A model generated the notes under the pieces. That model had not been told where the DNA came from. It saw nothing but the letters and a program-made list of their open reading frames with translations, and did not search any database. 64,000 nt of DNA from Octopus vulgaris (Eukaryota). Both the position numbers and the translations under genes were made by a program. The DNA lies in assembly GCA_951406725.2 (NCBI GenBank), contig OX597824.1, forward strand, positions 36,704,001-36,768,000, in the 5' to 3' direction. Positions 2,546-52,836 of the stretch are shown in pieces; the stretch's first letter is position 1, and every line of letters begins with the position of its first letter.

Positions 2546-3212
2546 AAATAATAACTCCAGCCAATCAACAGGTTGAGAAATATGGTAAGCAGAGAAGAGA
2601 GCAGCAACCTAGAAATGACATGTATAGGTTTACTCTCACACAATTCCTGATTAATGAGCTTCTCAGATTTATCATCACTATCTCCCCCACAGCAACAAGA
2701 CTTCCTTCATGAAATTAATATATTTTCACTACTTATGTTGTTCTCTTTTTTAAGCATTTTGCATTTTTATTTTTTTTTATGTATTTTCTTATACCTTATG
2801 GGCTTGGTTAAGGACACAGTGCACATAAATGTGTGAATATTTGGTTAAGAAAATATCACATTGATATATCAGAATATTTGCCATCACTTCAGGAAGTTTG
2901 ATGGGATTCAGTACAATCTATTTTGAGTATGTCCGTATGTGTGTATTTGTTGAAGTGAGTGGAAGGAAATAGTTGCATATATAGGGAGATTATACATATA
3001 TATATACATACATACATACATACATACATACATATACACACATATATACATACATAGACGCACACACACACACACACACACACACACACACACACACACA
3101 CACACATATATATACATACTTTTAAAAATAGGATAAAATCTTTCAAGTAGTTAGTGTGAAAAACCTCATAAGAGGAAAAATCCACCAATTTTTTCACTTA
3201 AATATATTTATT

Positions 3213-3273
3213 TATATTATATAGAGGGCATTACTGTGGCATTTATGTATAGTAATGCCCTCTATATAATATA
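3213..3273. repeat. Fold-back unit (23-bp arms, 15-nt loop) with family tail at 3128-3185 (minus)
   Basis: TATATTATATAGAGGGCATTACT / AGTAATGCCCTCTATATAATATA, next to (TA)n. Confidence 0.85.
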
Positions 3274-4581
3274 TATATATATATATATATATATATATAT
3301 ATATATATATATATATATATATAGCATGAGGGATATTAACTAGTTTGAAGAAGTTCTTAAACGGATGTACACAAATAAACATGTTTGTAGATGTTCAGAG
3401 AAACACGTACATAGATTAATGCACACTATATATGTGCCAATAAATACACTACCTAACACACATGCACACCCATAAACACACACACACACACACAAACACA
3501 CACAAGCACACACCCATAAACGTGGCTATGTATATTAATTCGTGTACATATATAAATAAGAAGAATAAAAGTGGTAAAACACATCAATTGCAGAAAAGAA
3601 AATTAATAAAATAACGAATTAGGCACTTCCAGTGCGATCGATTTCTATCTTCCAAATATGGGCATCAACCCACCTCCAGCATGGGCCAATCATAACTGGG
3701 AAGAATGAAAAGACAATAGCCTCTTCAGTGTTTGTTTGTTTTTCTATATAAACATTACAGCAAAATTTGATCAAAACTGCTGAAAGCCACCCACACAATA
3801 ACCTCTGTGCAAAGCCATGGCATTGTACCCAAATAAAGAACTACAAAGGGTAGAAATGTCCTTTCTTCCATCCAAACTGTGTCAGAATTCATACTGAGAA
3901 CAATAAAATATACCATTTTGCTTAAAGAGATTTGAACCAAACCAAACTTCAAATTCATGGTGAAATCTAAAGCTCCAATTCATTCCATCTCTGTGGAATG
4001 GCCATTGACAAAAAACACCAAACAAAACAACGGTTGTTTGACAAAGTTTCTTCAGTGAATAAAACAAACAATGACAGCATAACAACTCCATAATTGTGCA
4101 GTCTTTGAGAAAATTCTTTTTTGCTGACATATCTTGAAAACCATGAAAGCAAAACTCTAATCCTTCAAATCCAATGATCTATTAATTACTACCACTTTCA
4201 CCTCCAGTATTATCACCACCACCACCACCACAACAACCATCCATCACCACCACAACAACCACCACCATCATCACCACTGCCAACATATCACATGTAGAGT
4301 AGGCTCTGTTCAATAATCACCTACATGTAACCAGTCATTGCAGACAAATCACTAAAATTTCCAAACTGAAGAAGAAAATGACACCTATTTACATTAGCCA
4401 ACTTCACAAGGATCTAAATATTAAGAAAGAAACAGTTTGAAATCTAATCTTTGAAATTATATTTCCTGGAATGAGGAAGGGAGTTCTGTGCACTTATCTA
4501 TATCTGCAAAGACTTGGAGCAACCAGTGCCAAACTTTGGAATTGAAAAGAAGACAATTCCTAAATTGAATGTAAATATCTA

Positions 4582-4880
4582 TTTCTTTACTACCCACAAG
4601 GGGCTAAACACAGAGGGGACAAACAAGGACAGACAAACGGATTAAGTCGATTATATCGACCCCAGTGTGTAACTTGTACTTATTTAATCGACCACGAAAG
4701 GATGAAAGGTAAAGTCGACCTCAGCGGAATTTGGATGAAAGGTAAAGTCGATGAATTTGGATGAAAGGTAAAGTCGATGAAAGGTAAAAGGATGAAAGGT
4801 AAAGTCGAACTCAGAACGTAACGGCAGACGAAATACAGCTACGCATTTCGCCCGGCATGCTAATGTTTCTGCCAGCTCAC
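4582..4880 (-). mobile_element. tRNA-derived SINE family B (Nin-domain-like core GCCTTTCATCCTTTCGGGGTCGATAAA) with internal stutter
   Basis: Matches copies at 22385, 47905 and 54330. B box GAGTTC(A/G)A. Confidence 0.85.
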
Positions 4881-5295
4881 AGAATGTAAATATTGTAAAT
4901 ATTGAATGTAAAATATCTTAGTTCCAAAATTTCTATCTCCTTCACCTTGAAAAAAGACAAAAAGTATCAAAATTCATGCATTTCAAGGAACCACAGTTCA
5001 TGAAAATGCAGAGCCAATGTCAACAGTTTCAAAATGGTTTTTGTTCTGAACAATCTCTAGTGAGCTGACATTACAGCACGAGATACAGATGAAGGAAGTG
5101 AGCTAACTCATTTTCTAGATGCTAGACAGGTATGATAACAACTACATGAGCTGAAAGCAGTCGATTAATAAAAGAATATATGTAAAAAAATAAAGTTAAT
5201 CCAAACATGAAAACACAAAGAGAAAACACAACAACGCGAGGACGTGGAACAAATATAGTATTATTGGATGCTCAGGAAGGAAGGGAAGAAGGAGG

Positions 5296-51100: not shown

Positions 51101-51861
51101 CTTCCAGACAGGAGATAAGTTGAGAACAGAAGAGTGAAAAATAATACAGAATATGTGTCTGATTAAGATATATCTACTAAATGCATTTCTTCATAGAGTC
51201 TTAGTTCTTTAACACACTCACATATTGCAGGTATGGAATCTTTCTGAGAATCAACAACCGTTATTATTTGCACGTTTCTTACAACTGTGTTGCATTTCTG
51301 TTGCAGATGTGACATCAATTACACACCACCAACTTTGACTATTTGTAATGAAGGATTTCATTTATGGAGTCATATTACATCATATTTATTATAGTTATAT
51401 CCAAGATATTGATTTTTTTCTAGGGAAAGGTGAGAGTTAACTAAATTAACCCCAATATATTTCTGATACAAATTTTATTGATCTTGGATCAATGAAAGTA
51501 ATGTCAGAACGTAGGTATGATATAATATCCTGCAAGATATTCAATCTGTCAAACACACCATTTCTACCAAATTATAGGCAAAATATTTGTATTCCTTGTG
51601 ATAGGATCTAGTTTTAGTAAAGTACGCTTATAAAGTGTTCACTGATCTATTGATCTAATAAAGTACTTTGGTCAATTGTATGCTGTACTAAATTTCTTCC
51701 TATTTTTGATATTTGCAGCAATGTCCATTTTTCTGGAGGAACTGCATCTCTTTGCTGAAGTTCTTTAACCTCTATTTATGTCTCATGTTTCTGTATGGTT
51801 AACTTCCAACTCAATAATTTGGTTTCCCAGAAAATATTGTTGAATCACTAAGCACTAAGTA

Positions 51862-52373
51862 CCATAAATCCTCGAGTATAGCCCGCCCTTGAGTATAATA
51901 TGCAGGGGATTTTTACGGGGCTGTACCTCTGAAAAACCTAAACCTTGAGTATAATACACACCCTTTCTCTAACTTGAGTCAAGGAGGTCTATATAATTTC
52001 CTTGGTTTGTAAAAATATATACGGTAACATCCTTTATTATTATTGTACATATAACATAATGCAAGCGTGTAGCTTTTTTGTGCCTTTTGTTTGCAGAAAA
52101 TAAAGAAATAACAGTAATAACGTTTAATAAATGTTACTTACTGCAAGTTATGAATGGTTCTTTTATGACTTCATTGCTTTCAGGCTTAGCTTAAGGTATT
52201 TTCATGCCCGACATCACAAAATGCGTCTGAATAAACATTGCTGGGCAGCAAATAGAGACTCGGACATTGCTTAGAAAATATTTAAAATTTTCAACCTCGT
52301 ACATAGTACGCACTAGGGATTTTGACCATTAAATTATGGGGAAAAAATGCGGATTATACTCGAGTATTTATGG
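51862..52373. mobile_element. MITE, same family as 27070-27591, copy 2
   Basis: TIRs CCATAAATCCTCGAGTATA / TATACTCGAGTATTTATGG with TA flanks. Both arms are homologous to copy 1. Confidence 0.88.
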
Positions 52374-52430
52374 TAGATGTTGACCCTTTAGGAAATTTAA
52401 AAGATACTCAGTCACATCTGATAATTGTGT

Positions 52431-52836
52431 AAGGAATATATATTAGTGACAGAGGTAGTATTGATCACCACTGAAACATGGTTGTTGTGTTGGAACAAAC
52501 TATACTGTGGTAGATACCACGAGAGAAACTCTCATTTTGGCTTTTGGTGCAAAATCCACTCTTGTTTACATCACTACAGGGGAGATAAATCTCTGCCACC
52601 ACCAGCTAGAGGTAGCTATTAGCAGCTGAATATACATCATTGATAAGACCAAGGAAGGTGAAAATCACGTGATCTGGTCTAGGCACTGGAGGAGACAGGG
52701 ATTTATCTTCCCGCTTGCAATATAAAAGGGTGCATTTTGCACTGACAGCCAATATGGGAGTCTCTCTCATGGTATCTACTGCAGTATAGTTTGTTCCAAC
52801 AGAATATCCATGTTTAATTGGGGATATATATTACTT
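52431..52836. repeat. Fold-back unit (about 140-bp arms) with a decayed hammerhead in the spacer
   Basis: GTTGGAACAAACTATACTGTGGTAGATACCA / TGGTATCTACTGCAGTATAGTTTGTTCCAAC. Spacer 52636-52678 reads ATCA-TTGATAA-GACC..GGT-GAAAA-TCACGTGA-TC-TGGT. Confidence 0.85.

Follow-up and report, generated by a model that had tools for sequence, protein, structure and literature searches.

Hairpin-shaped repeats in an Octopus vulgaris genomic window as probable head-to-head stubs of Penelope-like elements

What are the short hairpin-shaped repeats scattered through a 64,000-nt stretch of the Octopus vulgaris genome (assembly GCA_951406725.2, contig OX597824.1, positions 36,704,001–36,768,000 of the forward strand; hereafter ‘the window’)? 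A first-pass annotation, made from the sequence letters, described at least ten such units (at 3213, 6258, 7958, 9182, 10292, 10721, 13198, 15932, 29938 and 52431) and interpreted them as a class of non-autonomous hairpins derived from Penelope-like elements (PLEs) or retrozymes. Our analysis supports a narrower answer: the units are, with good confidence, dead, heavily 5′-truncated PLE insertions in head-to-head arrangement, at least partly of the Hydra clade, within TA-rich microsatellites. The PLE origin stands for unit 10721 and by the anatomy of Hydra elements that carry an open reading frame (ORF); we found no support for calling the units ‘non-autonomous’, ‘retrozymes’ or a ‘new class’. 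For the units without a hammerhead ribozyme motif, PLE origin is inferred.

The composition of the window is that of animal DNA, with 35% GC and abundant microsatellites and SINE-like (short interspersed element) repeats. Scanning it with microsatellites masked and a threshold of 60 bits, we found 14 local inverted repeats, as compared to one in the mirror-repeat control and none in each of 10 block shuffles. These are eight of the annotated units, two hairpins that had been missed (31245 and 48899), three pairs of dispersed repeats in inverted orientation, and a SINE fold-back (26581). The hairpins in the window are real features, and this includes the two shorter annotated units that fall below the threshold, 7958 (44 nt at 88%) and 3213 (a perfect 23/23). 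As annotated, the arms share no homology across units when compared within the window; the exception to single occurrence is 52431, which has a third partial copy at 24603–24656.

Unit 10721 (10721–11072, plus strand) is the one for which we studied copy number and family structure, using contigs recruited at 80% likeness from three DNA runs. The unit starts with a tail-less inverted copy (10721–10857, junction near 10850), continues with a sense copy that includes the hammerhead and runs to 11046, and ends with a 26-nt family tail (11047–11072); (TA)n-type repeats flank it on both sides. The runs yielded 809, 1426 and 1753 matching contigs, although they may come from related species (no contig spans the stretch) and summed depth does not equal copy number. 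At 10850, 31, 28 and 37 contigs of the three runs diverge from the window into a common upstream sequence, and over the junction at 10846–10847 the runs give depths of 14.9 (a single mismatching contig), 0 and 0; another inversion joint is seen in one family contig. Between 22 and 42 contigs per run carry the tail, in keeping with the element-derived optional tail at one end seen in endonuclease-bearing (EN+) PLEs, and other loose ends enter TA at the tail-less end. Since the junction is private and the family extends beyond the unit, the hairpin is a by-product of integration rather than the unit that spreads. Thus 10721 is neither single-copy nor part of a family bounded by terminal inverted repeats (TIRs). 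A miniature inverted-repeat transposable element (MITE), of which many copies would have both TIRs and the interior in common, is likewise rejected for this unit by its private junction, the upstream continuation and the asymmetric ends; the first-pass annotation had argued against MITEs from the asymmetric tail.

The family also informs on the ribozyme. A G at 10896, found in ~99% of the family, restores stem II; the GAAA, helix III and helix I carry no variant at or above 10%, and loop II is the variable part. Judged from these sequences, 10721 is a member of a high-copy family whose majority sequence restores a hammerhead of the Hydra-clade type, with self-cleavage only predicted. In an RNA run, 20 of 12.9 million reads match the unit, on both strands and with no end pile-up among those 20; no locus in the metagenome, genome or viral collections matched an exact 24-nt probe taken from the family. 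At 11052–11054 the tail of the window copy differs from the family majority by three bases, and because the changed tail is the exact inverse of the hammerhead core at 10886–10893, the change suggests a template-switch mutation.

How widespread are hammerheads in the window? A scored scan detected six sites at 25 or above and none in the reversed sequence, the best four being 10887 (plus), 40760 (minus), 8173 (minus) and 5326 (minus). A strict descriptor, which was widened after 52640 had been seen so as to admit U3-A8 and one extra A, passes three sites (52640, 40760 and 41884), where 60 shuffles give 0.07 on average; 41884 sits in A/T runs and was treated as a chance match. The window copies at 10887 and 8173 have a broken stem II and for that reason fail this descriptor. 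The motif of unit 10721 (10882–10926, plus strand) is of the minimal type I, Hydra form, with a U·U at the base of stem II and a palindromic helix III; its core is intact, as annotated, it scores highest, and one base breaks stem II in the window copy. The hammerhead of unit 7958 (8112–8178, minus strand, site 8173) had been overlooked and has an intact core, a 5-bp helix I, a 4-bp helix III and a decayed stem II. The annotated motif in 52431 (52636–52675, site 52640) held up as a U3-A8 variant bearing an additional A, under the descriptor adjusted post hoc; U3-A8 is a natural, active covariation of hammerheads (PMC3088659). The candidates at 6346, at 9995 and in 15932 pass neither the scored scan nor the strict descriptor. 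Both 52640 and 6346 read TTGANAA, the compensatory U3-A8 form, and as both arms of 6258 carry it, the motif at 6346 may predate the insertion; unit 6258 holds a possible decayed U3-A8 hammerhead on this sequence reading.

Published Hydra-clade hammerheads have the form ctga(a/t)gat...tgaa and lie about 100–210 nt from the 3′ end (PMC8557442, File S2), and PLE motifs typically combine a palindromic helix III with weak activity (PMC4209133). A Hydra-type hammerhead ~100–200 nt from the 3′ end is found at 10887, 8173, 40760 and 52640. Site 40760, also new, belongs to a solo 3′ end without a hairpin (40572–40765, minus strand) that carries a Hydra-form hammerhead and ends in the CCTAT motif described below and (AG)n. 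A further new minimal-hammerhead family, which forms no hairpin, has two copies: 5177–5377 (minus strand, site 5326), which has an intact core and one stem II mismatch, and 47678–47881 (plus strand, site 47728), which has an intact stem II and one core change and ends in (TA)n. Their defects differ, and the two copies combined give a perfect motif. Of 216 Rfam matches in the window, the 150 listed include no hammerhead, and neither do the 17 on 10800–11000. Energy-based folding gives the hammerhead structure no preference, which is expected for minimal motifs.

Coding remnants tie the window to the Hydra clade. The PLE ORF remnant annotated near 43330–44050 was confirmed as Hydra-like with fetched Hydra proteins (tblastn E 1e-10): it spans 43225–44113 on the minus strand, is frameshifted, and its motifs cover the end of the reverse transcriptase (RT), the linker, the endonuclease and the C-terminus, the alignment running across the CxCx5C linker with the last Cys replaced. 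Direct homologue searches with the frameshifted remnant gave no match, and the identification came solely via the fetched proteins. The same clade is represented by a second remnant, unseen in the first pass (17024–17413, minus strand; tblastn E 6e-7, profile E 6e-11), and by a third, C-terminal one (39078–39242, minus strand; E 0.005, profile E 1.6e-5). All three lie on the minus strand. The peptide ‘STCQRNK’ in the spacer of 9182 was considered as an ORF end and is unsupported by the C-terminal profile search.

As a comparator we used public sequence scanned for Hydra-type motifs, which yielded 46 + 9 + 4 = 59 loci; many of these are chance matches to the motif, among them those in phage capsid and bacterial genes, and were set aside. 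Hydra elements L023/L024, L029 and L032 have ORFs of 500–733 aa between direct repeats, and the 733-aa ORF has no matching Pfam model. From the short copies we took a sample of 20 (16 distinct after merging four duplicate pairs; full-length loci and L056–L058 excluded). Their 3′ ends fall at +53–55 after the motif in 13/20 (11 then continuing in TA), at +120–129 in 5/20 and at +35–38 in 2/20, or 11, 3 and 2 of the 16 distinct copies. The interval between two of these fixed ends gives an optional tail of 67–74 nt, closer to the annotated tail length of 60–90 nt than to the printed 30–40 nt. One locus, L031/L046, is a fresh hairpin: its arms are 100% identical, (TA)n lies on both sides, the tail sits on the inverted arm and the junction has short templated repeats. 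L030 is a partial second hairpin. Window unit 7958 (7959–8345) has the polarity of L031/L046, with the hammerhead-bearing copy on the minus strand and its tail-less end at (TA)n, and a short inverted copy (8215–8260) followed by a ~85-nt extension that reaches (TA)n. The inverted 5′-truncated head-to-head copy of EN+ PLEs is recognisable in three units: the polarity of the hammerhead shows it in 10721, 7958 and 52431, and in 10721 the upstream continuation does so as well. GAGCACT occurs downstream of the motif, first at +68–82, in 17/43 comparator motif matches; it occurs twice in the window, once within the extension of 9182, a link to Hydra tails that is suggestive only. The full-length or long Hydra-clade PLEs L023, L029, L032 and L057 come from public metagenome contigs and a bacterial metagenome-assembled genome record (L056–L058); the latter suggests that this record carries animal contamination.

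Insertion into (TA)n, a further trait of the Hydra clade, is well represented: an arm end lies no more than 2 nt from a microsatellite in 6/10 units (five TA, one TG), as compared to 8% for random 250-nt stretches. The claim that the units adjoin microsatellites thus stands for six of the ten. TA repeats mask any target-site duplications at these units. The proposed layout of microsatellite, arm, inverted arm, tail and microsatellite is complete in four units (3213, 7958, 10721 and 29938) but not in most, and the side of the tail varies, so that either arm may carry the extension. General homology of the tails, also claimed in the first pass, was rejected, none of 210 pairwise comparisons being convincing; what remains of the claim is a short motif, TA(Y)CCTAT(A/T)T, which occurs eight times in the window and in four cases closes the tail of a unit (3213, 7958, 10292 and 15932). 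The tails of 3213 and 10292 align (p=0.002, among 10 pairs). Both the motif count and this alignment are post hoc, having been made after the motif was noticed.

These features may be rationalised as follows. The GIY-YIG endonuclease would nick a (TA)n target on both strands, and each nick would prime reverse transcription of the element RNA, which would begin at either of two fixed internal positions; starts at different positions would leave one arm with a tail and the other without. Both cDNAs would stop after 25–350 nt and would be joined, in what we infer to be the closing step, at a copy-specific junction via short templated insertions or microhomology. Only where one cDNA extends ~100–200 nt would a hammerhead be included. 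For Poseidon PLE in vitro, cleavage of AT-rich DNA and extension on both strands are reported, as are reverse transcription from two internal sites, with the interval between them constituting the tail, and the dispensability of hammerhead cleavage (PMC11167929); inverted 5′-truncated PLE copies and tails have been described as well (PMC8557442, PMC3846280).

Several observations weigh against this interpretation. Units 6258 and 52431 have no microsatellite within 600 nt, and a credible hammerhead is found in only 3/10 units (10721, 7958 and 52431), being absent or unconfirmed in 7/10. No hairpin unit contains an ORF, and none of the three ORF remnants is joined to a hairpin; the C-terminal Hydra profile matched no hairpin spacer, and the contigs upstream of 10850 are too short to reach one. 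The copy-number evidence comes from one unit of ten, and within that family core position U4 is changed (10888 T>C) in 1–32% of the depth. In the comparator, an upstream inverted copy is present at only two distinct loci, many contigs ending within 100 nt of the motif. Finally, the SINE fold-back at 26581–27018 demonstrates that non-PLE sequence can form hairpins here.

How else could the hairpins have arisen? The same PLE origin is compatible with a snap-back route, in which one cDNA folds at a quasi-palindrome at the truncation point and copies itself, the endonuclease then trimming one arm so that the tail remains on the other. Short loops (5–15 nt) in 3213, 6258, 10292, 13198, 15932 and 29938 fit this route, self-priming has been proposed for A. 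vaga Penelope (PMC3846280), and both arms of 10721 carry three family-minority letters in common. However, the inverted arm of L031/L046 has tail sequence that is missing from the hammerhead-bearing arm, so that simple copy-back needs an additional trimming step; unit 7958, with the same polarity, points the same way, its extension being only putatively element-derived. On balance we consider snap-back a minority prospect, at roughly one chance in four. Somewhat less probable still is that some hammerhead-less units are fold-back duplications of arbitrary DNA, produced by template switching during replication or repair beside microsatellites and unrelated to PLEs. The SINE that turns at its own small stem is a model for such an event, some units lack a microsatellite or a tail, and copy-number data exist for 10721 alone; set against this are the conserved hammerhead and tail of the high-copy 10721 family and the terminal motif common to four tails.

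That the hairpins are non-autonomous elements spreading as units, whether MITE-like or as hairpin retrozymes, we regard as very improbable. High density, TA flanks that fit TA target duplications and the presence of a mariner remnant (45670–46528) would agree with it, but for 10721 it is contradicted by a junction missing from about 4000 matching contigs and a family that extends upstream. Furthermore, the ends are asymmetric, the arms match neither the mariner TIRs nor one another, and tandem hammerhead arrays were not found in the window. A different question is the nature of the parent RNA, which for some families might be a short PLE derivative that lacks an ORF and is mobilised in trans, with the hairpin still formed at insertion. 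This is a real if unlikely option, and a slightly better one than snap-back: the 3′-end depth of the 10721 family is very high in all three runs, the two copies of the 5177/47678 family have an identical start point, and non-autonomous PLEs have been described (PMC8557442; bioRxiv 10.64898/2026.07.22.740005).

The remaining units vary in arm length, likeness and surroundings. Unit 3213 (3121–3273, minus strand) has perfect 23-bp arms, a ~90-nt left extension ending in the CCTAT motif and (TA)n on the right, and unit 6258 (6264–6419, plus strand) has ~75-nt arms (76%), both reading TTGAAAA...GAAA, in microsatellite-free surroundings. Unit 9182 (9183–10290, plus strand; spacer 188 nt) has 190-nt arms (93%) and only a hammerhead half-site, and its left arm later received a SINE (9236–9647). 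In unit 10292 (10285–10633, minus strand; 59-nt arms, 96%) the left arm is split by a ~116-nt insertion, and the left extension related to the 3213 tail measures ~110 nt. Unit 13198 (13198–13336, plus strand) combines 64-nt arms (92%) with an 11-nt loop and (TA)n on the left, and has no hammerhead. Unit 15932 (15883–16130, minus strand) has ~97-nt arms (80%); its left extension of 49 nt closes with the CCTAT motif, next to (GA)n. Unit 29938 (29938–30297, plus strand) has ~130-nt arms, 89% alike over an alignment that includes flanking TA, and no hammerhead; (TA)n lies on its left and an 87-nt extension leads to (TAT)n on its right. Unit 52431 (52455–52834, plus strand) has 157-nt arms (77%). 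The additional hairpins, to which no strand is assigned, are 31245–31427 (58-nt arms, 81%; (TG)n left) and the short 48899–48946 (22-nt arms).

Other repeats share the window. The SINE fold-back (26581–27018) consists of the common SINE 5′ part with 224-nt arms (81%), turning at the SINE's small stem-loop, and is likely a separate snap-back event because its polarity is opposite to that of the PLE units. The mariner-type remnant retains part of a DDE transposase (PF01359, E 4e-20) between TIRs of 33 bp. A ~510-nt repeat that occurs twice (27073–27591 and 51865–52373) and whose inverted ends measure just 27 nt is likely a real MITE-type element, and inverted-orientation copies (90%) of a ~230-nt repeat (21640–21866 and 38647–38875) are possibly a short DNA element. 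A near-identical direct duplication of ~270 nt, seen by eye (41515–41790 and about 42035–42300), could be recent or an assembly artefact. On the minus strand, 33145–33480 and 37602–37721 are candidate host-gene exons, the latter with a weak IQ-motif match (E 0.03); if they are real, many units are intronic.

Why would such stubs matter? With microsatellites masked, 400/518 of the bases in this one window that have an inverted partner within 2 kb at ≥95% over 40 nt lie in non-SINE hairpins, and 1009/1609 do so at 85%. Porath et al. 2017 report exceptionally high double-stranded RNA (dsRNA) potential and hyper-editing for octopus, a species not included in their repeat-class analysis, as well as heavy editing of lizard Penelope (PMC5625713). 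Penelope stubs, as ready-made hairpins occurring about every 5 kb and drawn from many unannotated families, could be an overlooked source of dsRNA, and the share of near-perfect duplex bases in hairpins makes the editing link testable. We tentatively propose, as a joint claim that is less likely than its negation, that the position of the tail, on one arm or the other, records in the genome how a dimeric RT with two start sites primed on both target strands, and that the stubs are the main non-microsatellite source of dsRNA feeding hyper-editing. If true, they would supply the octopus genome's main near-perfect dsRNA outside microsatellites, feeding its exceptional A-to-I hyper-editing. The stubs also explain short inverted repeats that TIR-based annotation is likely to file as MITEs, point to high-copy PLE families unmatched in the one curated set checked, and, with a tail on either arm and Hydra tails of ~70 nt, offer a genomic test of the PLE mechanism.

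How do the units compare with known systems? Our literature search, which lay outside most subscription journals, Repbase and Dfam, found no report of these Penelope stubs in octopus. The architecture itself is already known, since Craig et al. 2021 describe inverted 5′-truncated copies and tails that may sit at either end and, for the Hydra clade, hammerheads, insertion into (TA)n and a family from octopus (PMC8557442). Hydra elements (including Hydra-1_Obim of Octopus bimaculoides) resemble the units in the form of the hammerhead and its position near the 3′ end, in (TA)n targets, used by all but one of the families listed there, in the inverted 5′-truncated copy and in the optional tail, and the WFxPxYS / KISYSC linker is shared with the window ORF remnants (PMC8557442). 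In contrast to Hydra elements, the units are ORF-less stubs of 100–500 nt, and their tails mostly measure 50–110 nt as compared to 30–40 nt in that paper and 67–74 nt in our comparator. Eleven window k-mers had no relevant match in its consensus files. The Naiad clade (Naiad_Obim, Ovul and Omin) shares (TA)n insertion, inverted copies and tails and, lacking canonical hammerheads, could parent hammerhead-less units, although those Naiad 3′ ends that were compared by eye are unlike the units (PMC8557442). Penelope of Adineta vaga and Drosophila virilis and Poseidon PAc of Anolis share the head-to-head inverted pseudo-LTR, the tail, microhomology junctions and two RT start sites, but belong to another clade and are described mostly from long ORF-bearing copies (PMC3846280, PMC11167929). 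Non-LTR retrozymes are likewise PLE-derived and ORF-less with a type I hammerhead; the units do not fit them because retrozymes are direct tandems, each unit with its hammerhead, whereas a window unit pairs two inverted copies and has no more than one complete hammerhead (bioRxiv 10.64898/2026.07.22.740005). MITEs and foldback DNA transposons are similarly short, with inverted arms and TA flanks, whereas 10721 has asymmetric ends, a copy-specific centre and a family longer than the unit.

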